A stretch of 64,000 nucleotides of DNA from a virus. Shown one piece after another: positions 13,414-47,697 of the stretch. The position numbers and the translations under genes were made by a program. A model generated the notes under the pieces. That model was not told where the DNA came from. It searched no databases and was given only the letters and a program-made list of their open reading frames with translations. The stretch lies in the IMG/VR virus record IMGVR_UViG_3300037010_002464, one strand, 5' to 3'. The first letter of the stretch is position 1. The number at the start of each line of letters is the position of its first letter.

Positions 13414-14004
13414 ATGGCATCACATCCTATCCCCAAGTTCGGGCTCGCGATTGACTTCGAGACCACCGGGTACTCCCTCCCGCACTATGCCGAACGGCAT
13501 CAAGGCGTCTCCTTCGGCGCGCTGATCTTCGACATCGAGCGGCTGACTGTTGTTGACACGCTGTACTGCGAGATCAAGTATGACCCGAAGTACGCGTGGG
13601 AGGACACCGCTGAGAAAATCCACGGCCTGACTCGTGACTACCTCAGCAAGCACGGCGTCACGCAAGCCGAAGCCGCAGAGCAGCTAGCTCTGATGGTCCA
13701 CAAGTACATGGGCACCGAGAATGTCGTTGTTCTCGGCCACCGCCCGCACTTTGACATCGCTTTCCTTGACCAGCTGTTTGACTCGATCGGCTTTGCTTTC
13801 AAGTATGACCCCATCAAGCTCGACACGGCCGCCTTTGGCTTGGTCATGTTGGGGATGACCAAGTCCGATGATCTGTTTGACGCGGTAGGCCTGCCGCCGC
13901 GCGGGAAACATGATGCCTTAGAGGATATCATTTACACGTTGGAATCTCTAAGGCAAATCCGAGATTATTTCTTGACAGGACTTGCTGTATCAGCATCGTC
14001 CTAA
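13414..14004 (+). CDS. DEDDh 3'-5' exonuclease (DnaQ/RNase T-like)
   Basis: IDFETTG, A-KIHGL, H--FDI-FL, LDT, HDALED. Confidence 0.88.
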   Translation: MASHPIPKFGLAIDFETTGYSLPHYAERHQGVSFGALIFDIERLTVVDTLYCEIKYDPKYAWEDTAEKIHGLTRDYLSKHGVTQAEAAEQLALMVHKYMGTENVVVLGHRPHFDIAFLDQLFDSIGFAFKYDPIKLDTAAFGLVMLGMTKSDDLFDAVGLPPRGKHDALEDIIYTLESLRQIRDYFLTGLAVSASS

Positions 14005-14670
14005 ACTGAAGCCATTAGCAAGATACAGCTCTAGCTCATCTTGTTTGACGCGCTTAGTTTTCTCTTCATTGTGCACCCATACGCGCCCTTTTGAGCTAAC
14101 ACTCATGAGGGCGCGAGCATTTGGAGCCACAACTTTTCCTTTTTGAGCAGCGCTTATCTTAGCGCGCTCTTCTTCTGACTTAATTCTACCGGTAGCTGCC
14201 CTAGCAACTGCGTCCTTGACATGTTGAGGACATGGAATTCCTCTGTGAGCTTCACCAAGCTTTTGAGAATGTTCCGCAGCACGCGAAGGCTGCTTACGAC
14301 CTTTATGAAATTGACTGATACGAGCCTTATGCTCGTCTGATAACGTCTTACCTTTGTGAACAAGGCTTAGCATCACAGCCACCCGTCGGCGATCGGCTTC
14401 GTATAATTTGTATTGCTCCTTGCCAGTCACTTTATACTTTCGTTGAATGCGAGCTACTGCTTGAGCTAATCCATGATGCATTGGATAAATGCGGCACAAC
14501 AGTCGATGTGCGAACAAATGCTCTCTGTAAGGAAGCTTGACCAAGTTTACTTTCGCATCACTACCACCCATGCATCTTGGTACAATGTGATGACGCTCAC
14601 CTTCAACGTCTGAAGATTTACGCTGTTGTCCTCGCTTGATCAAATTTTGATAGATGATGCTGTAGTTCAT
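13990..14670 (-). CDS. Free-standing HNH homing endonuclease with NUMOD3 repeats
   Basis: ERHHIVPRCMGG, NLVKL-REH--AHRLL; repeated SEEHK-KIS..HKG; AT-rich. Confidence 0.9.
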   Translation of the reverse strand: MNYSIIYQNLIKRGQQRKSSDVEGERHHIVPRCMGGSDAKVNLVKLPYREHLFAHRLLCRIYPMHHGLAQAVARIQRKYKVTGKEQYKLYEADRRRVAVMLSLVHKGKTLSDEHKARISQFHKGRKQPSRAAEHSQKLGEAHRGIPCPQHVKDAVARAATGRIKSEEERAKISAAQKGKVVAPNARALMSVSSKGRVWVHNEEKTKRVKQDELELYLANGFSLGRC

Positions 14671-40183: not shown

Positions 40184-40330
40184 CTAACAAGCATTTCCCA
40201 GTGTCAGTCGTAATCGAGTGGGATGGCATAATGCTAGCAGCGAAAGCAACACCGTCTTCGTGTTCAATTCAGGGTCTTCGATCAGCAGCTGTTGAAGCTT
40301 AAGAGCGCTTGTCCGAATCTCTCGAGCCGT
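40184..40330 (-). pseudogene. LKLQQ-family remnant lacking its start
   Basis: AREIRTSALKLQQLLIED read in an alternative frame across the end of 40299..40820. Confidence 0.4.
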
Positions 40331-40820
40331 AGCTGAGGTAGTCGACGTAGGTGTGCTGGAACTTGACGCGGTTGAAGACGTCATTGCCTACTTTTCGCTT
40401 GATGTCAACGATATCAGTCAGCTCGAGAGCCGTGTCTGAGCCGACGAGCTTGACCTGCAGCGACTTGGTCGCGTTACCTCGTGCGTGCAAGCGAAGGTCC
40501 TTAACCTCAGCCTCAACCCGTTCTTCGTCATAGTCGGTCTCGACCAAGGTGTAGACAACGGTGTCGCCTGGCTGTGGCAGGTTAAAGGAGCGCTTCAGCG
40601 GGCCCAGCGCTTCGAGGAGCTTCGAGCTCTCGTCATACTGGACCTTGACGCCGTTGATTTCAACCACGTCTGCAAAGAAAGCGGCACGAGAGCCGTCAGG
40701 CAACGGCTCCTTGACATACACCGCGGGCTGGGTCTTGAGGCTCGTGTAGGAGCTGACCACGTGCACGCCGTCTTGGCCGAGCAGCTTGATCTTGTCATTC
40801 TTCACGAGTGCTACAAGCAT
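40299..40820 (-). CDS. Hypothetical protein
   Basis: TAATG-coupled ORF. Confidence 0.7.
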   Translation of the reverse strand: MLVALVKNDKIKLLGQDGVHVVSSYTSLKTQPAVYVKEPLPDGSRAAFFADVVEINGVKVQYDESSKLLEALGPLKRSFNLPQPGDTVVYTLVETDYDEERVEAEVKDLRLHARGNATKSLQVKLVGSDTALELTDIVDIKRKVGNDVFNRVKFQHTYVDYLSYGSRDSDKRS

Positions 40821-41044
40821 TACTCAGCTCCGGCGGTGTCGTCGACAACAGGCGTGGCCGTATCGATGGTCTCAGGCCCTGCCGTGCCCATGATGCGGGC
40901 TTTCATCTTGGACTGTAGCACGTTGCTGATGATCGATTGTGCGTTGCCTTCAGGGTCACCCTTGATGGTAGCGTTGATGAAGTTGCGCAGGGCGGCTTTG
41001 GTTTCTTCTGGAGTCATATGTTCCCAACGGTTAGGTTGTGCCAC
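40820..41044 (-). CDS. Small late protein (prohead-core-like)
   Basis: TAAATA at 41046; short helical protein with an acidic tail. Confidence 0.5.
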   Translation of the reverse strand: MAQPNRWEHMTPEETKAALRNFINATIKGDPEGNAQSIISNVLQSKMKARIMGTAGPETIDTATPVVDDTAGAE

Positions 41045-41056
41045 CTATTTACCTCC

Positions 41057-41509
41057 TCAAGGAAGCGTCTGCTTCACCACGGCTTGCAACTCACCGGCAA
41101 GCTGCCGTAGGTGCTCAGCATTGAACCGCTCCTGGCCTCCAGTAGGCCGCGGGTTGCTGGCCAAGAAGAGCAGTCCTTCGATGATCGTCCGATTGCAGTC
41201 GTTGACCCACTGGACACGGGAGCTTTCATGAACGCCATGCCGACATGCTTCGAGCGCCGAGTTCCAGCCTCGAACAAAGCCTTCGCGCTCCTCGTTCGGC
41301 GGGACAAAGATTGTCCGCGCAGGCGATGACACCTTGGCCGGCCACTTGACAGCCAGCACCAAGCCGCGCTTTGCTGCGAGGCAATCGAGCCTTGCGTCCT
41401 CGAGCTGGCGAGTCAGCAGGCGCACCTGAGCCTCAAGCTCTTCGATCTTGTGCTTTGCTGCAATGGGTGACTCGCTATGAGGTGGGCCTTCAATGGGTAG
41501 CACGAACAT
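41057..41509 (-). CDS. Hypothetical protein
   Basis: AAGGAGG RBS; GF-RGWN-ALE motif. Confidence 0.65.
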   Translation of the reverse strand: MFVLPIEGPPHSESPIAAKHKIEELEAQVRLLTRQLEDARLDCLAAKRGLVLAVKWPAKVSSPARTIFVPPNEEREGFVRGWNSALEACRHGVHESSRVQWVNDCNRTIIEGLLFLASNPRPTGGQERFNAEHLRQLAGELQAVVKQTLP

Positions 41510-41519
41510 GTGACCTCCT

Positions 41520-42032
41520 TTAACGGCAGTCGGCAGGCTCTGCCTTGACCGTGTACAGAATCAGCTGGCGGTTGACCGCCAAAGCCAAGCTGGTGGAGCT
41601 AGTGACCTTGACGATGACATCGCTGATCTCATTCCAGTCCCCGCCCGCCCGCCCGGCGCCGATCATTGGGAACAGCAGCGGCAGGCTGCCTGCGGAGATG
41701 CCGCTGCAGTACTCGTGCATGCTCATCATATACAGCGTCTTGCTGAAGCATTCAGCCAAGCCCTGCATGTCGAGCGGGTTCGGGCCGCCCAGCGTTTGGG
41801 TGACGGCGTTGACGATGAACAGCTCTGGGTTGTGCTGATAGAACGAGCAGGTGCCGATCTTCAAACCGAGCAGCTGCTCGGTTTGCTTGTAGACGGCGTA
41901 GGCGCCAGGGTAGCGGTTACGCACGCCGGCGGCGACGCCTGACCCCATGACACCCTTGTCATTGCAGCCGTGGATGATGAAGCCGCGAGGTGCGGATAGC
42001 AGGTCATCCTCGACGGTGAAGAATTTTTTCAT
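41520..42032 (-). CDS. Macro-domain (ADP-ribose processing) protein
   Basis: DL, HGCN--GVMGSGVA, N-VTQ, FPMIGAG-AGGDW. Confidence 0.9.
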   Translation of the reverse strand: MKKFFTVEDDLLSAPRGFIIHGCNDKGVMGSGVAAGVRNRYPGAYAVYKQTEQLLGLKIGTCSFYQHNPELFIVNAVTQTLGGPNPLDMQGLAECFSKTLYMMSMHEYCSGISAGSLPLLFPMIGAGRAGGDWNEISDVIVKVTSSTSLALAVNRQLILYTVKAEPADCR

Positions 42033-42754
42033 GATGTCCTAACTGAACAGAACAGGTTGAGCAGCTCGCGCTGCCAGTCGGCGGTGGGAACTTTGACGTG
42101 CTCATACACAAGCGCTTGCAAGGCTTCACCGTTGCAGAATGGGTCACGATGAGCGCGTTGTGCAAAGCGAAGGAGCTCATCCTTCAAGGCTTCATTGCCG
42201 CTTTGCCGAGCCTCGCCCTTCTTGCGACTGCGCACAACGCCTGGGATGAGCTCAGCCGCAGCGAGCGCCACAGCTACAGGGTAGCGAGGCGGTTCGGTGT
42301 GCATGTAGAAGTCCAGGCTTTCGCGTGCCACGGTCAAGTGAGCGTCATAGCTGAAGATCGGCTTGACTTGCAGCAGCTTGCGTAAGTTAGTCAGCTCAGG
42401 CGACACCACCTTCATGTACCAGAAGGCGGGATTCTTGCCGGACCATGGTGTGCGTTGCAGGGTAGTTGGGTCGAGCTCGACCGTGATTTGGCTGTTGACA
42501 ACCTGCTTGCACCGCTCTTCGTCAAAGCGGTCACCGTTGCCGCGGACCACCGTGATGTGGGTGCCGAACATTGGCTCAAGCAGGTTGCACCATGGGCCAT
42601 GCTCAAGCTCTATGAGCTTGGCATAGTAGCGAGCCAGCTCACGGTGCTTCTTCCCTGGGAGGTCCAGGATCAAGGTCTTGAGCTTGCCGGTCTTGCGGAA
42701 GTCCGCGCCGCGGTCAGGCTCGAAGACGAGGTTGCCGGTAACTTTCATGTTCAT
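42029..42754 (-). CDS. 2H phosphoesterase-family protein
   Basis: Two HxT motifs (THITVV, AHLTVA) about 75 aa apart, with S-EL--LR between them. Confidence 0.65.
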   Translation of the reverse strand: MNMKVTGNLVFEPDRGADFRKTGKLKTLILDLPGKKHRELARYYAKLIELEHGPWCNLLEPMFGTHITVVRGNGDRFDEERCKQVVNSQITVELDPTTLQRTPWSGKNPAFWYMKVVSPELTNLRKLLQVKPIFSYDAHLTVARESLDFYMHTEPPRYPVAVALAAAELIPGVVRSRKKGEARQSGNEALKDELLRFAQRAHRDPFCNGEALQALVYEHVKVPTADWQRELLNLFCSVRTS

Positions 42755-42780
42755 AAGTATTCAACTTGCCGATAGGTATA

Positions 42781-42809
42781 ATAGTACACCCTATCGAGCA
42801 AGTTGTAAA
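42781..42809 (-). promoter_or_regulatory. Sigma70-like promoter inside an inverted repeat
   Basis: TTTACA-N17-TACTAT; IR 42762-42776/42790-42805. Confidence 0.65.
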
Positions 42810-42812
42810 CAC

Positions 42813-43640
42813 TTAGAGTGGCCTCAATTTCGGCTCACCACCGTTGAAGAACTCGGCCACGTTGTCTAGCTGGTGGATGCTGAGCCATTGAGTATCAACG
42901 CGGACCTCATGCCTGGTCACAGGCTCGCCGGCGGCCGGACGCTTGGCCAAAGGGATGCGCTGTCGAACCTCCTCGTCCAGCGGCTTGAGGAAGGAGACAT
43001 GCCGCAGGTAGGCGCCGTTAGTGTAGGTAGGTGGCAGGCTCTCCCAGTCGAAGCCTCGCTCCTTGAGCAGCTCACGACGGTCTTGCATGCTGATGCCATG
43101 CAGCTCACGCTCAGGCGCAACGACACGGGCTGCGGTGCTCACAGCGTTCTTGACCGCGTCCTTCTCACGCCAGGTAAAAGCGTCCAACACGTCCAGCTCC
43201 GTGGGCACCTCCCACATGCGGCAGTCAAAGGCCGGCGGCTCGTTGAGCTCCAAGTAGCGAGTCGGGTCAGTCCGCATCAGGGTATCGAGGAATCGGCCAG
43301 TGAAGGTCGCCGACAGCAGGCTCACGTTCTTCTGCTCACGCATGTTGAACTCGAGCTTGTCACGATGCCAGCAGAAGGTGGCTTCATCAGACTGCACATA
43401 GGCCAAGCGCGGCCGCATCTTTGTGAAGGTACCGGCCGTAGCCTGAATCATGGCTTCGAGGATCCAGGAGTCGACGGGCTTCTGCATGCCCTTTGTGAAG
43501 GTGCTGAATGTACGGCCGTCAACGCGCGCGACAACCCACTCCCAGTCTTGGACAAGCGAGACTCCCGGACGAAAGAAGGAGCGCTCATTAGCCAAGCCCT
43601 CGTAGGCTTTGACCCGGTCACCGAGTGCGTCTGTTTTCAT
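42813..43640 (-). CDS. thg1: tRNA(His) guanylyltransferase Thg1-like 3'-5' polymerase
   Basis: RVK-YE, VARVDGRTFSTFT, YVQSDE, FDCR, WRE-DA-KN. Confidence 0.92.
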   Translation of the reverse strand: MKTDALGDRVKAYEGLANERSFFRPGVSLVQDWEWVVARVDGRTFSTFTKGMQKPVDSWILEAMIQATAGTFTKMRPRLAYVQSDEATFCWHRDKLEFNMREQKNVSLLSATFTGRFLDTLMRTDPTRYLELNEPPAFDCRMWEVPTELDVLDAFTWREKDAVKNAVSTAARVVAPERELHGISMQDRRELLKERGFDWESLPPTYTNGAYLRHVSFLKPLDEEVRQRIPLAKRPAAGEPVTRHEVRVDTQWLSIHQLDNVAEFFNGGEPKLRPL

Positions 43641-44149
43641 TCGAGAGAGTCCAAGTAGTCGTTGTAGGCACGGTGCGCCGAGCGAAGCACGAGCGGCCGC
43701 AGCTTGAGCTTTGACCGCACGTTCTTTGTAGTAAGCTTGCCGGAGCTTAACTTCGTTGCGCCAGAAGGTGTCAACCTTCTTCTGACGCTCTTCGCGCCAG
43801 TGTCGATGAAGTAGCTCTTCCCTACGCGCTCGATGACCTTCATCGCTTCGAATGGGTCAGAGCCGCCGTAGTCGTCCTCGCTGTCCGGGGTGACCGTGAC
43901 AGAGATGGCCATGAGGCCAGCGCCCGCGTCAAATGAGACAGCTAAGGCTGCAGAGTCCTCGTTGCGGAGGAGGTTGTAGCGACCTACGACACGGGTGAAC
44001 CGAGGAGCCTGCTTGATCGGATGATGCTTGGCTTGGAGCATGCGCAGCTGCTCCTTGAACTTGTCACCCTTCGGGACGCCGCTGCCCTGCTCGATGCCGA
44101 AGTCGCACCAGGAATCCGAGCTCACTTGTTGAGTGTCTTCTTGAGCCAT
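43637..44149 (-). CDS. Hypothetical protein
   Basis: Coupled ORF within the cluster. Confidence 0.6.
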
Positions 44150-44481
44150 GCTTCACCACCTTTAGCTTGCAGCTTTTCGTGTTGCCGATAGGTGAGCTCG
44201 GTCGTAAAAGTGACCGTGCTCTTGGTTGTACGGCACCCCCGCTCCCGCAGCGTACCCATTGCCTCGTTGATCAGCTTGACGTAGTCGCCGACGGTCTTCA
44301 CATTCTCGATGTCATCGTCGCTGAGCTCGATACGAAACTCGTCTTCGACAGCCATGACCAGCTCAACCGCATCGAGGCTGTCCAGCATACCGTCGGCTTT
44401 GAGCTTCGAGAGCTGGGTATCAGGCGCTAGCTTAAGCACCTCCTCTGAGTAGCCGGTCTGCTCAAGATGGTCTTGAGCTAG
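44122..44481 (-). CDS. Acyl carrier protein-like (start uncertain)
   Basis: [28 protein letters not shown]; frame open up to the ArfA stop at 44482. Confidence 0.8.
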
Positions 44482-44655
44482 TCAGGTGAGAGAGTCGTCA
44501 TCTGGAATTGCCTTCTTGCGTTCGAATGAGCCCTTACCCTTGCGCTGCCGTTGGATGCGCTGCCGGTACTTGGGCGTTAGCAGGTCACGCGCGATCGGGT
44601 CACGCGGCCTTTGAATCGGGATGACGAGGGTGTTCTCGTCCTTCTCATCAGCCAT
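44482..44655 (-). CDS. arfA: Alternative ribosome-rescue factor A-like (57 aa)
   Basis: Translated by hand: ...DPIARDLLTPKYRQRIQRQRKGKGSFERKK...; missed by the ORF track. Confidence 0.85.
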   Translation of the reverse strand: MADEKDENTLVIPIQRPRDPIARDLLTPKYRQRIQRQRKGKGSFERKKAIPDDDSLT

Positions 44656-45703
44656 GATGATAGACCTTGGTCAAGGCTTCGATGCGAGCATGCTTGAGAG
44701 CCAGGCCGATCTCCTTGCCAGGCAGGCCCAGGAACGGCTCGGCCAGCACGCCGTTGACTGCCTTAACGCCTTGCTCCAGGAGCTCGAGCTCAACAGGATC
44801 TGTGAACACCATGGCTCGACGCACTTGCGCCCACAGGCCACGGGTGGCTCCGGTTTGCTGCATGTCATCGAGCAGGCTGACAGGATTTGAGCGATCCCAT
44901 TTGCGAGTGATCACGTCAAAGGCCTTGACGGTCCCGCCAGGCAGGCCGCGTGCAGCGGCCTCGGTGATACGGTTGACGGCACCACCATGCTTGATCAGCC
45001 AAGCCAGCACTAAGTCAGGCTCTCGAGTCTTGTTGAGCAAAGCTTGGGTGAAGTCGGCGTCCATCGTGCGTAAAGCAGCAAGGCCTTTGACACGGCCGAA
45101 GGCCTTCATGACATAGAGCACCCTGAAGAAACGCATCGGGTCCGGCGTCTCCAAGGCTTTGACCAGCTCAGCCCAGATCCGCTCTTGGGACAGCTCGTTC
45201 AGCTGGCCGTGCTTGATCATGTCCTCGCACAGCTCGATAGTTTCGACGGCGATGTCAAAGTCCGGAAACTTGCCAGCGAAGCGGGCCAGCCGCAGGACAC
45301 GGAGCGGATCCTCGCAAAAGGCTTTGCTCGTGTGCCTCAACACCTTGACTTGTAGGTCACGCCTGCCACTGTAAGGGTCAACCAGCTCCCCTGTCTTCGT
45401 GTGCTTGGCCATCGAGTTGATGGTCAAGTCACGGCGGGCCAGGTCATCCTCAATCGTGACGGTGGGCGCGGCGTCAACCTCGAAGCCGTGATAGCCAACA
45501 GCCACCTTGCGTTCGATTCGAGCCAGCGCCCATTGGTCGCCGTTCTGTGGGTGCAAGAACACCGGAAAGTCGGCGCCGACCTTCTCAAAGCCGAGCTTCA
45601 ACATCTCGGCCTCGGTGGCGCCGGTGACCACGTAGTCATGGTCCGAAGGTGTCAAGCCCAGCAGCTCGTCACGGACTGAGCCGCCCACAGCGTAAACTTC
45701 CAT
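44648..45703 (-). CDS. cca: tRNA nucleotidyltransferase (CCA-adding, class II, no HD domain seen)
   Basis: VGGSVRD-LLG, DHDYVV, VGADFPVF, ALAR-ERK, DL-RRDLTIN, EDPLRVLR-ARF, ER-W-E. Confidence 0.93.
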   Translation of the reverse strand: MEVYAVGGSVRDELLGLTPSDHDYVVTGATEAEMLKLGFEKVGADFPVFLHPQNGDQWALARIERKVAVGYHGFEVDAAPTVTIEDDLARRDLTINSMAKHTKTGELVDPYSGRRDLQVKVLRHTSKAFCEDPLRVLRLARFAGKFPDFDIAVETIELCEDMIKHGQLNELSQERIWAELVKALETPDPMRFFRVLYVMKAFGRVKGLAALRTMDADFTQALLNKTREPDLVLAWLIKHGGAVNRITEAAARGLPGGTVKAFDVITRKWDRSNPVSLLDDMQQTGATRGLWAQVRRAMVFTDPVELELLEQGVKAVNGVLAEPFLGLPGKEIGLALKHARIEALTKVYHHG

Positions 45704-45728
45704 GTCAGCCTCCGTTAGTATTGTACGG

Positions 45729-45757
45729 ATTGTACACCAGGAAGGCGCTGGTGTAAA
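45729..45757 (-). promoter_or_regulatory. Sigma70-like promoter for cca
   Basis: TTTACA-N17-TACAAT; flanked by a 10-bp IR 45708-45717/45767-45776. Confidence 0.7.
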
Positions 45758-45805
45758 TCACTTCTGTAACGGAGGCGCCCCCGAGACGGGCTCACGCCTG
45801 TCATC

Positions 45806-46381
45806 TCAGTCCCCGTGGTGCTTTGAGAAAGCCCGGGGCGCCATTAGAGCCTTGAGCTCCTCATAGGAGATGGGCGCATAGTTCATGCCTGGCGCGTCCA
45901 CGCCGATGTCCTGGATCTTGCCGCCCCAGGGGTGAATGGTCGTGCCATGACAGTGGCCGTGCAGCATCCAGGCTCCGTGGTGGCCGGACTCCCAGGTCAG
46001 CTCAGGCGTGTGGTTGAGCGTGATCTGCTGACGGTTGTACTTGCCCACGCCCTGGTCAGGAATGTTGATCACGCGCTTCTTCTCGATCAGCTCGAAGTAA
46101 GCGTGCAGCTGCTTGTTATCCTCGATGACCGAGTCGTGGTTGCCGAGGATCAAGCGCTTCTTGCCGTTGAGCCGGCACAGGATGTTCTCAGCCTTGACAG
46201 CTGGGAGGAAGGCAAAGTCGCCCAGATGCCAAACGATGTCATTCGGCTTGACCCGAGCATTCCATTTTTCGATCAACGCTTCGTTCATCTCGTTGACGTT
46301 ACCGAAAGGGCGCTTCGAGTACTTGATGACGTTGGCGTGTCCGAAGTGGGTGTCGGACGTGAAGAAGAGTGTCTGTGTCAT
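45806..46381 (-). CDS. Calcineurin-like metallophosphoesterase
   Basis: SDTHFGH, LGDF, GNHD, H-P, HGHCH. Confidence 0.9.
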   Translation of the reverse strand: MTQTLFFTSDTHFGHANVIKYSKRPFGNVNEMNEALIEKWNARVKPNDIVWHLGDFAFLPAVKAENILCRLNGKKRLILGNHDSVIEDNKQLHAYFELIEKKRVINIPDQGVGKYNRQQITLNHTPELTWESGHHGAWMLHGHCHGTTIHPWGGKIQDIGVDAPGMNYAPISYEELKALMAPRAFSKHHGD

Positions 46382-46508
46382 GATGTTATTATGATGCGCT
46401 CGAACCAGATGCCGAGCGTTGTTGACCTGCGCTCAACTTCGAGCTGCAAGTGGTTGGGCAGGTCAGTGACGTGATGCACGATGACATACTCGTTGGGCTC
46501 TCGCTTGG

Positions 46509-46847
46509 TCACGAGCCTAGCCCAAAGCTCGCGTGAGCAAGGGTGCATAGGTTGGCGACCGACGTAGGGGGGCTTTCATTTGACTTGTGCATGGTTGCAA
46601 TGCCAAGCATCTTGTTGCCGGTGTAGACCGGCACAGGCTTCAGCGCCGTACTTCCGCCAGGCGTGACAAGGCTCTGGGGCTTCGGGGTTTGCCGGATGAC
46701 AGTCTCAGGAGCCTTGACCGGCGCGACTTTGACTGGAGCCGGCGTGCGCGCAAACTTAGGTACGCTCGCCCACTTAGCCAGCATCTGTTCATTGGAGTCA
46801 TGCAGCGCCTGTTGCTTGCTTGTTAACTGATGCTTCTTTCGCTTCAT
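46509..46847 (-). CDS. T4-like hypothetical protein
   Basis: YTG-KMLGIATMHKSN motif; own sigma70-like promoter. Confidence 0.65.
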   Translation of the reverse strand: MKRKKHQLTSKQQALHDSNEQMLAKWASVPKFARTPAPVKVAPVKAPETVIRQTPKPQSLVTPGGSTALKPVPVYTGNKMLGIATMHKSNESPPTSVANLCTLAHASFGLGS

Positions 46848-46854
46848 ACCTTGG

Positions 46855-46885
46855 ATTGTATTCGGCATTAGCCGCTTTGTAAATA
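46855..46885. promoter_or_regulatory. Overlapping divergent promoters
   Basis: Minus strand TTTACA(46878-83)-N17-TACAAT(46855-60); plus strand TAAATA(46880-85). Confidence 0.65.
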
Positions 46886-46890
46886 CTTCC

Positions 46891-47697
46891 ATGCTTAAGA
46901 CCTACATCATCCAACGTTCAATTCTCGAGCCTATCCCGTGCGAGCGCCTGCACCGTGTTGACTATGACGAGCTGCTCAAGACAATGCGCTTTCCGCTCAT
47001 GTGGGTATACGAGCACTACCTGCAGGCATGGCTACCGCGCGAGGTGGATGAGCGCTTGATCTTGTCGATGACCGGCTATAGGCTCGATAATGACCGGCTA
47101 ATGCGCAGGCTAACAGTCCTGGGTTTGCTCGAGGTGCCACAGCTGCGATGGGAGGACCTCAAGGACCAGCTTAAAGCTGACGGCTATGTCAAGGTTCCAG
47201 GCATAGTGCCTGCGGGTTACTGCGCTCAGCTAGCTGACTACTTCTACCGTCAACCTGAAGTCCATGAGCGCTGGCCTGACATGCCTGGCATCAAGCGTAC
47301 ATCGGTCAATGACTCGCCGTTGATGCGACTGGTCCATGAGGCTACGCTCAAGCTTGCACTCTACGTGCTTGACGCTGACATCAAGACCAGCTATAGCTTT
47401 ACAGCAGCATATGAGGCAGGTACCGTGCTGCCGCGGCACACTGACAGGCCGCAGTGCGTTTACAACGCGTCCGTCATCTTAGGTGTCGACCCGTCAAGCG
47501 CTGACCCTAAGGAGTGGCCGCTCTTCATCGAAGTCAACGGAGTGCCGCATGCTGCCAAGCTCAACGTAGGCGACGCTGTGTTCTATGCAGGTACCCGAGA
47601 CCCACATTGGCGGAACGAGCTCCCAGCAAACATGCACCGGCTACTGGGAACCTTTTTCCACTACGTGCCGGCGGACTTTGCCGGCTCGCTTGCTTAG
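46891..47697 (+). CDS. 2OG-Fe(II) oxygenase
   Basis: L-RHTDRP-C, WPL, L-VGDAV-Y-G..PHWR, F-HYV. Confidence 0.8.
   Translation: MLKTYIIQRSILEPIPCERLHRVDYDELLKTMRFPLMWVYEHYLQAWLPREVDERLILSMTGYRLDNDRLMRRLTVLGLLEVPQLRWEDLKDQLKADGYVKVPGIVPAGYCAQLADYFYRQPEVHERWPDMPGIKRTSVNDSPLMRLVHEATLKLALYVLDADIKTSYSFTAAYEAGTVLPRHTDRPQCVYNASVILGVDPSSADPKEWPLFIEVNGVPHAAKLNVGDAVFYAGTRDPHWRNELPANMHRLLGTFFHYVPADFAGSLA

Follow-up and report, generated by a model that had tools for sequence, protein, structure and literature searches.

A conserved early block in one phage lineage encodes a CCA-adding enzyme, an ArfA-like protein and a Thg1-like polymerase in a single predicted operon

The viral DNA analyzed here is a 64,000-nucleotide stretch (the window) of IMG/VR record IMGVR_UViG_3300037010_002464. 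It belongs to a phage of ~175 kb that is also present in public assemblies (contigs up to 174,685 bp) and whose closest cultured relative is the Ralstonia jumbo phage RsoM2USA (DNA polymerase 42% identical, a distant kinship). At 41520-46381 the window carries, all on the minus strand, genes for a metallophosphoesterase (MPE), a CCA-adding enzyme (cca), an ArfA-like protein (arfA), an acyl carrier protein (ACP; acp), a 170-amino acid (aa) protein, a Thg1-like 3'-5' polymerase (TLP), a 2H phosphoesterase and a macro domain. These positions and this shared orientation agree with an earlier note on the window, made from its sequence alone, which read the eight genes as one contiguous module for tRNA repair and ribosome rescue. 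The gene identities given there are borne out by family or motif evidence, with the reservation that acp is frameshifted and has no proper start. The run itself is present and is longer than proposed: an uninterrupted series of same-orientation ORFs occupies the minus strand from 46892 (the upstream limit) to 40299 (the downstream limit).

Three near-identical sigma70-like sites of the form TTTACA-N17-TAC(A/T)AT occupy the sole sizeable intergenic gaps of this block, one upstream of its first gene, p127 (P1, TTTACA-N17-TACAAT, 46855-46883, minus), one upstream of cca (P2, TTTACA-N17-TACAAT, 45729-45757, minus) and one between the TLP and 2H genes (P3, TTTACA-N17-TACTAT, 42781-42809, minus). 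Six sites were observed against 2.0 ± 1.6 in shuffled sequence, and sites of the same form lie at matching positions (for P1, upstream of the p127 homologue) in most of seven related metagenomic loci (L003-L009), which were reached through TLP homologues 48-75% identical to that of the window. Because these conserved promoter-like sites split the block, a single eight-gene operon is rejected, and the block appears to consist of three tandem early-type units, each with its own predicted sigma70-type promoter: p127-p56-MPE (unit 1), cca-arfA-(acp)-(170-aa gene)-TLP (unit 2) and 2H-macro-(p150)-p74-p173 (unit 3). Start and stop codons overlap by 8, 28, 4 and 4 nt inside units 2 and 3 (cca stop/arfA ATG, 8 nt; 170-aa gene/TLP, 4 nt; 2H/macro, 4 nt), and these overlaps predict translational coupling that is limited to cca-arfA-(acp)-(170-aa gene)-TLP and to 2H-macro. 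What stands of the proposed single module is the linkage of six core genes in the relatives and one coupled cca-arfA-TLP operon; the eight genes as a whole are divided among three promoter-delimited units, and two of them, acp and the 170-aa gene, are dispensable.

The first gene of unit 2 (44648-45703, minus) encodes a class II CCA-adding enzyme. Both the PolyA_pol head (PF01743, 66 bits, 5e-18) and the RNA-binding neck (PF12627, 29.3 bits, 7e-7) are recognized, phrog_2244 is matched at 6e-91, and the motifs GGxVRD, DxD, RRD and EDPLRVLR (EDxxR) are present and invariant in the orthologue alignment. The best solved matches are the Aquifex A-adding enzyme and true CCA enzymes, with similar scores. 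Head and neck are shared with the E. coli-type multifunctional Cca (NF008137), but only positions 1-204 of the 409 in that model align (1e-88; score 297.6, under the cut-off of 451), no conserved His or Asp was found past residue 204 in the eight orthologues, and the C-terminal 150 residues of the phage enzyme form another helical region. The HD phosphohydrolase half is therefore missing, as the earlier note had remarked.

TLP, encoded by the last gene of unit 2 (42813-43640, minus), scores 91.3 bits against the PF04446 cut-off of 29.2 (6e-26). Its catalytic residues, D41 and S84-D85-E86, are invariant in 11 sequences and are common to the bacterial TLPs (4kgk; PMC3061083, PMC3701042), from which it differs in carrying ~60 additional C-terminal residues. 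Among solved structures the Bacillus thuringiensis TLP stands nearest by far (4kgk, 5.7e-58), and the eukaryotic Thg1 structures 3wbz, 3otb and 5xox are matched at 1e-25 to 4e-29; by these comparisons the phage protein is of the bacterial rather than the eukaryotic Thg1 type. TLPs of this type mend 5'-truncated tRNA in vitro (PMC3061083).

Directly after cca lies the arfA-like gene (44482-44655, minus), which ends in a true UGA stop. Its 57-aa product matches PF03889 at 29.7 bits (gathering cut-off 25.5) over just 19 residues and aligns through DLLTPKYRQRIQRQRKGKGSFERK with E. coli ArfA as resolved in ribosome structures (residues 18-41 of 5mgp_w and five further ArfA chains, E 0.003-0.007). 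The core, Y/F-RQR...KKGKGS-F/Y, and the basic tail that follows it are invariant or nearly so in eight orthologues, an upstream D-P-I-A..L segment is likewise kept, and 16 columns are invariant in total. An ORF of 50-63 aa, always stop-terminated, directly follows cca in all seven relatives; three of these ORFs had been overlooked by gene callers, and the orthologues in L006-L008 have precomputed PF03889 matches (E ≤ 1e-5).

The shortness of the PF03889 match and the E-values to the ArfA chains would also fit a short basic peptide that is ArfA-like by composition and is not a ribosome-rescue factor, as would the outcome of two homologue searches: tblastn against phages gave no match, and a word-based search returned only the query itself. 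We consider such a peptide very improbable, since the curated cut-off is exceeded, the core and the D-P-I-A..L segment are kept across the lineage, three orthologues have precomputed family matches, and the ArfA family profile recovers 80 more viral ORFs of like size (E 1e-7 to 2e-17). The tblastn result is a false negative, because the same profile finds ArfA in RsoM2USA, as an ORF beginning MKNVVAKDL...KKKKGKGSFRRGKKGKHDE (L010:15802-15921; MG752970.1, ~111844-111963) on the strand opposite the annotated RsoM2USA_176. In all, ArfA-like ORFs are present in at least 104 viral IMG/VR contigs and are short (typically 48-60 codons) and stop-terminated. Such genes are common in viral metagenomes and are overlooked by gene callers, BLAST (tblastn with low-complexity filter) and word-based searches; published annotations of ArfA, with no experiments attached, exist for Citromicrobium phage RXM and pelagiphage HTVC027P.

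In bacteria the template for ArfA synthesis is a non-stop mRNA, either cut by RNase III or terminated too early, and tmRNA keeps expression low (PMC8012679). A corresponding layout, with a hairpin or terminator before the stop, was sought in the eight phage arfA genes and not found; all have ordinary stops after 50-63 codons. By ending in this way the phage genes would escape tmRNA control, and ArfA should be made constitutively, freed from bacterial-type regulation. The phage proteins share the conserved core of the E. coli ArfA/RF2 rescue system (PF03889; PDB 5mgp, 5u4i, 5h5u) and the window ArfA has roughly the length of the active truncated bacterial form; the differences lie in the stop codon of all eight genes and in the residues N-terminal of the core.

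The order MPE-cca-arfA-TLP-2H-macro is kept in all seven relatives, with acp and the 170-aa gene optional, so that linkage of the core genes in relatives, which had been set beforehand as a test of the cluster, is found for six genes without exception. Protein identities to these relatives are 55-82% for MPE, 42-61% for the CCA enzyme, 55-73% for ArfA, 25-77% for 2H and 50-72% for macro. At the DNA level, megablast found no match to the 6-kb block among 50,697 phage records, and a single-protein scan of IMG/VR with the CCA enzyme returned no matches.

Three hydrolase genes flank the cca-arfA-TLP operon. MPE (45806-46381, minus) matches phrog_547 at 3e-53 and PF12850 (Metallophos_2) at 25.9 bits, slightly below the cut-off of 27. 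The metal-binding motifs DxH, GD, GNH(D/E) (here GNHD), H and GHxH are invariant across seven orthologues and predict a calcineurin-type metallophosphoesterase, whose closest solved relative is the Aquifex protein aq_1665 (PDB 1xm7, 1.8e-16).

In the 2H protein (42029-42754, minus), H66xT68 and H139xT141 are invariant in eight sequences, and an AlphaFold2 model (mean pLDDT 85) places the 2H domain at residues ~20-153, followed by a C-terminal helical bundle. The fold was recognized solely by VIA re-alignment, in which every one of the best 30 structural matches is a 2H enzyme (Z 5.7-7.9, 106-126 residues aligned). The top match is the anti-CBASS enzyme Acb1 (PDB 7t26; Z 7.9, rmsd 3.0, 113 residues), and others include TT0787, Usb1 and MHV ns2 (Z 7.2 each) and LigT (Z ~6); in sequence, solved 2H enzymes are 9-18% identical to the phage protein. 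A profile search of the PDB by sequence gave nothing relevant, Foldseek of the model against the PDB gave no match under E 0.05, and a 2H scan of IMG/VR gave no matches. Against the RNA-repair model 2H-SAK (PF22547, cut-off 27) the window protein scores 14.8 bits (E 0.034), and two distant homologues, from contigs L196 and L209, score 30.3 and 24.4 bits; several database homologues bear PF22547. In two relatives (L008:10857-11633 and L009:3293-4072) the 2H protein has an N-terminal insertion of ~120 aa made of biotin/lipoyl-like repeats (Pfam Biotin_lipoyl, E 2.7e-5 in L009) and has no helical bundle.

The macro domain (41520-42032, minus; 170 aa), whose start overlaps the 2H stop, falls short of the Pfam Macro cut-off as a single sequence (19.1 against 22). 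As an eight-sequence profile it matches the solved macro domains BT1257, SCO6735, DarG, Poa1p and TARG1 at 2e-13 to 2e-6, which places it in the TARG1/DarG/Poa1p-like class. It also matches DarG macro models (NCBIfam, 2.7e-7; PADLOC, 3.8e-11, the only match in a PADLOC scan of the block). It is not a full-length DarG: NF048014 aligns residues 9-75, the N-terminal macro part, with a score of 30.2 against a cut-off of 250. The protein belongs to the T4 Tk.4 family, which counts 1,367 phage records.

Unit 2 also holds the two optional genes. The ACP domain (44122-44481, minus) scores 31.7 bits against the PP-binding cut-off of 20.8 and has the DSLD motif, and its N-terminus is broken; the gene lacks a proper start and continues the arfA reading frame past the UGA, with a GTG at 44439 as its first in-frame start. 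In L003, the closest of the relatives, acp starts with its own ATG in the +1 frame, within the arfA 3' end, and DNA alignment of the two (window 44439-44501, minus; L003:4040-4120) reveals a 16-nt deletion in the window. This deletion is the cause of the in-frame arfA/acp layout. It takes out part of ACP helix 1, the old acp ATG (44501) now reaches a TAG after seven codons, and a perfect 8-bp hairpin, absent from L003, has been created at the deletion junction after the arfA UGA. The called gene coordinates in L004, L007 and L009 put acp in the same frame as in L003. A programmed ArfA-ACP read-through fusion was considered and rejected, since all four relatives with ACP have an own-ATG, +1-frame acp. 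Most simply, the window acp would be a decaying gene.

As acp is missing from three of the seven relatives and the 170-aa gene (43637-44149, minus; found in the window phage and L003) from six, both are dispensable passengers, and it is unlikely that they act with the rest of the block. Pfam, PHROG, NCBIfam and PADLOC hold no credible family for the 170-aa protein, and Atlas gave no usable lead (scores ≤ 0.85; model pLDDT 0.35). The ACPs of the lineage share a conserved C-terminal extension of ~40 aa (window 44122-44260; P0029:95-144, P0030:100-143) with the motif V.L...Q.E.L...GG..WL...L and no family match.

The other genes of units 1 and 3, all on the minus strand, have no assigned function. 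The gene p127 (46509-46892; phrog_27048) is kept in five of the seven relatives and in a sister group (L030-L037), and p56 (46378-46548), a small ORF, was seen only in the window and L003. In unit 3, p150 (41057-41509) is variable among relatives, while p74 (40820-41044) and the terminal p173 (40299-40820) are kept in all of them and in a jumbo contig (L204). Upstream of the block, the region's single plus-strand gene (46891-47697, 268 aa) has no family match; it keeps its place and orientation, between p127 and tail-fibre-like genes, in six of the seven relatives (266-269 aa).

Downstream, six of the seven relatives (L003, L005-L009) continue past p173, on its strand, with genes for ClpP, PhoH, RNase T and a 397-aa protein, and the DNA polymerase gene follows as well wherever the locus extends far enough; L004 ends soon after ClpP. 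The window has these genes at 9.5-20.8 kb and on the other strand, a difference that points to a lineage-specific inversion of ~40 kb (1-40160 relative to 40184-64000), with a breakpoint just past p173 that leaves the block untouched. Between its RNase T-like and 397-aa genes, L003 encodes a HAD_SAK_2 phosphatase of the Swiss-Army-Knife RNA-repair type (L003:13488-14018); no homologue was found in the window or the other relatives, and the same position in the window (13990-14670) holds a NUMOD3 homing-endonuclease gene on the opposite strand.

The genes could be identified, their catalytic motifs and operon layout described and their conservation followed through eight phages; from these findings we infer the activities of the products, their targets and their possible cooperation. 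On balance we lean toward a lineage-conserved early block in which unit 2 is the functional core, serving to keep host translation usable, and in which the hydrolases plausibly belong to the same theme. The CCA enzyme would rebuild tRNA 3' ends, TLP would refill 5'-truncated acceptor stems, and ArfA, made from a stop-terminated gene, would bring host RF2 to ribosomes that have stalled at the end of a truncated mRNA; ArfA binds RF2 solely on the ribosome. Two tRNA-end polymerases would be co-translated with a deregulated rescue factor early in infection, the likely purpose being a host translation machinery that stays usable through that phase. The damage may be inflicted by host RNases, of the abortive-infection or toxin kind, or by the phage itself as it destroys host mRNA. 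RNA ligase, polynucleotide kinase, RtcB and KptA were sought in the block, in the flanks of the seven relatives and among ~45 ORFs of the window, and none was found; with neither ligase nor kinase, damage at RNA termini would be repairable and breaks in the anticodon loop would not.

The three hydrolases might remove terminal or cyclic phosphates or clear ADP-ribose-derived products, and they may act independently. MPE and 2H could reasonably supply in trans the end-healing that normally comes from the HD domain of Cca: this domain is present in the nearest cellular Cca homologues and missing from the phage enzyme, a gap that a separate phosphoesterase might plausibly fill.

Several points weigh against this assignment of the block to translation maintenance. 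MPE and 2H-macro reside in transcription units apart from cca-arfA-TLP. The flanks are just as collinear among the relatives as the block itself (tail-fibre genes upstream; p74, p173, ClpP, PhoH and RNase T downstream), and the synteny may therefore reflect common descent and is by itself no proof of co-function. Acting on nuclease-made 5'-OH ends, TLP would need a kinase, for which the search came up empty, and we know of no bacterial toxin that trims tRNA 5' ends. The nearest solved relative of MPE, aq_1665, has no known substrate, the modeled 2H fold is as near to Acb1 as to RNA-end enzymes such as LigT, and macro domains of the Tk.4 family occur mostly in phage groups, T4-type phages among them, that are absent among the Thg1 hits.

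Gene neighborhoods outside the lineage point the same way. Three sets of 80 viral contigs, built on ArfA (104 loci found, 80 examined, L016-L095, all confirmed at 1e-7 to 2e-17), TLP (546 found, 80 examined) and cca, were searched with profiles of the genes over at most 10 kb of flanking DNA. No ArfA locus has cca, TLP, 2H or macro within this distance. Among the TLP loci, cca occurs in just one (macro and ACP also in one each), and ArfA and 2H in none; among the cca loci, TLP occurs in one and ArfA in none. In RsoM2USA, cca is 22 kb away from TLP. Outside the lineage the set thus dissolves, and in full it is a property of one lineage.

Pairs of these genes do recur independently, namely TLP-MPE, calcineurin-type phosphoesterase-ArfA, 2H-cca and 2H-macro. 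MPE is present in seven of the 80 TLP loci (within 1.5 kb in four) and in four of the cca loci, its window-type family occurs in three of the ArfA loci, and the cca loci also include eight with macro and three with the 2H family. RsoM2USA has, within 4 kb, the order TLP - Metallophos - PTP-like phosphatase - unannotated ArfA - tRNA array. In DSS3_MAL1, TLP adjoins the window-type MPE family and cca is 9 kb off, and in Brevundimonas phage Kabachok cca lies 3 kb from TLP. The sister group L030-L037 has the p127 homologue ~2 kb upstream of ArfA, and in one member, L036, a Metallophos enzyme of another kind is encoded 1 kb upstream of ArfA. In Escherichia phage ph0011, Vibrio phage 2.275.O, L196 and L209 a 2H homologue is separated from cca by 1.4-4 kb, and the homologues of the last two are at or near the 2H-SAK model. 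An intact 2H-macro-p74-p173 block is found 3 kb from cca in L204 (IMGVR_UViG_3300021057_000274), a 389-kb jumbo contig.

Many of these loci also carry tRNA genes. They occur in 29 of the 80 TLP loci, some directly abutting TLP, and in at least 15 of the 80 ArfA loci, as arrays within a few kb; the RsoM2USA ArfA ORF ends ~10 nt ahead of such an array (Pro, Cys, Glu, Glu, Tyr...), and MPE sits within or beside tRNA arrays in L043 and L029. This association would suit enzymes engaged in routine maturation of phage-encoded tRNAs, by addition of CCA where the tRNA gene lacks it and of G-1 or other 5' nucleotides, rather than in repair of damage. For the block described here we judge this improbable. 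ARAGORN predicts no tRNA gene in the 64-kb window (of a genome of ~175 kb) or within 10 kb of the cluster in the seven relatives, hosts possess their own CCA enzyme, and ArfA plays no part in tRNA maturation.

A more serious competitor, which we regard as possible though on the unlikely side, confines the role in translation to unit 2. On this account 2H, macro and MPE are independent counter-defense or NAD/ADP-ribose enzymes that happen to adjoin it in an early accessory region; their possible activities are the breakdown of immune signals, either cyclic-nucleotide or ADP-ribose-derived, the reversal of ADP-ribosylation on DNA or RNA, or the dephosphorylation of proteins. The separate promoters agree with it, as does the structural comparison of 2H, in which Acb1 comes first and LigT-like enzymes, Usb1 and viral 2'-5'/cGAMP phosphodiesterases follow within 1 Z, and so do the matches of macro to DarG models, to DarG, Poa1p and TARG1 structures and to the widespread Tk.4 family. 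Metallophos-type enzymes include protein phosphatases. In L204 the order (L204:8448-17247) is NAD kinase, cca, small ORFs, an AAA_28 (NadR-like) kinase and then 2H-macro-p74-p173, which ties the 2H-macro block to genes of NAD metabolism. Both kinds of role are listed for 2H and macro in a survey of jumbo-phage RNA repair (PMC7824862). Set against this are the 2H homologues close to cca in at least four other lineages, some of them matching 2H-SAK, the MPE family members that adjoin TLP genes or sit within tRNA arrays in unrelated contigs, and the plausible vacancy for a phosphoesterase left by the HD-less CCA enzyme.

A further reading, that the cca-arfA-TLP operon is a dedicated counter-defense with trans-acting phosphoesterases replacing the HD domain of Cca, is in our view doubtful as a joint claim. 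It would have the phage restore RNA by re-polymerization rather than ligation, in answer to toxins that attack the acceptor end (for example HEPN/HepT-type 3'-end nucleases, CapRel-type pyrophosphorylation, MenT-type extension) and to mRNA-cutting toxins that strand ribosomes, with the stop codon gained by arfA releasing the rescue factor from tmRNA control.

Enzymes of the 2H and macro classes form the classic pair that acts on Appr>p and ADP-ribose-1''-phosphate and completes Tpt1/KptA-dependent RNA repair. The phage 2H, adjoining and coupled to a macro domain of the Poa1p/TARG1/DarG class, resembles yeast Cpd1 (2H) and Poa1p (macro), which process ADP-ribose 1'',2''-cyclic phosphate; it differs in that no KptA/Tpt1 was found with the phage set and in the additional C-terminal helical bundle of 2H. 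To phage Acb1, a 2H anti-CBASS nuclease (7t26), the likeness is one of fold, equally near, at an identity of 9-18% to solved 2H enzymes. The T4 enzymes Pnkp and Rnl1, which heal and seal tRNA-Lys cut by PrrC, are likewise a phage answer to tRNA attack and include removal of 2',3'-cyclic phosphate. Unlike them, the window set comes with no kinase or ligase that we could find, and would mend termini by re-polymerization, not internal breaks.

The nearest precedent for the block as a whole is the jumbo-phage RNA repair described by Iyer, Anantharaman, Krishnan, Burroughs and Aravind in 2021 (PMC7824862), in which CCA enzymes, Thg1, 2H, macro and calcineurin-like phosphatases are read as answers to host attack on tRNAs and ribosomes. 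The enzyme families are the same, and the closest cultured relative of the window phage, itself a jumbo phage, falls within that broad group. The components described there are scattered, PTH2 is the named rescue factor and ArfA is unmentioned, whereas in the ~175-kb window phage six genes are contiguous, cca-arfA-TLP form one coupled operon and no RNA ligase is nearby. We conclude that the block is a compact variant of known phage translation-maintenance toolkits.

Phage answers to attack on translation are known mainly from the ligase-based tRNA repair of T4 and from scattered annotations in jumbo phages. The novel element here is the conserved cca-arfA-TLP operon, which would bring together polymerases for both tRNA ends and a rescue factor rid of its bacterial regulation. 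The operon is compact, conserved and directly clonable, and candidate end-healing enzymes adjoin it. It thereby makes three questions testable: whether phage ArfA works with host RF2, whether bacterial-type TLPs have a physiological role in infection, and whether separate phosphoesterases may replace the HD domain of Cca.

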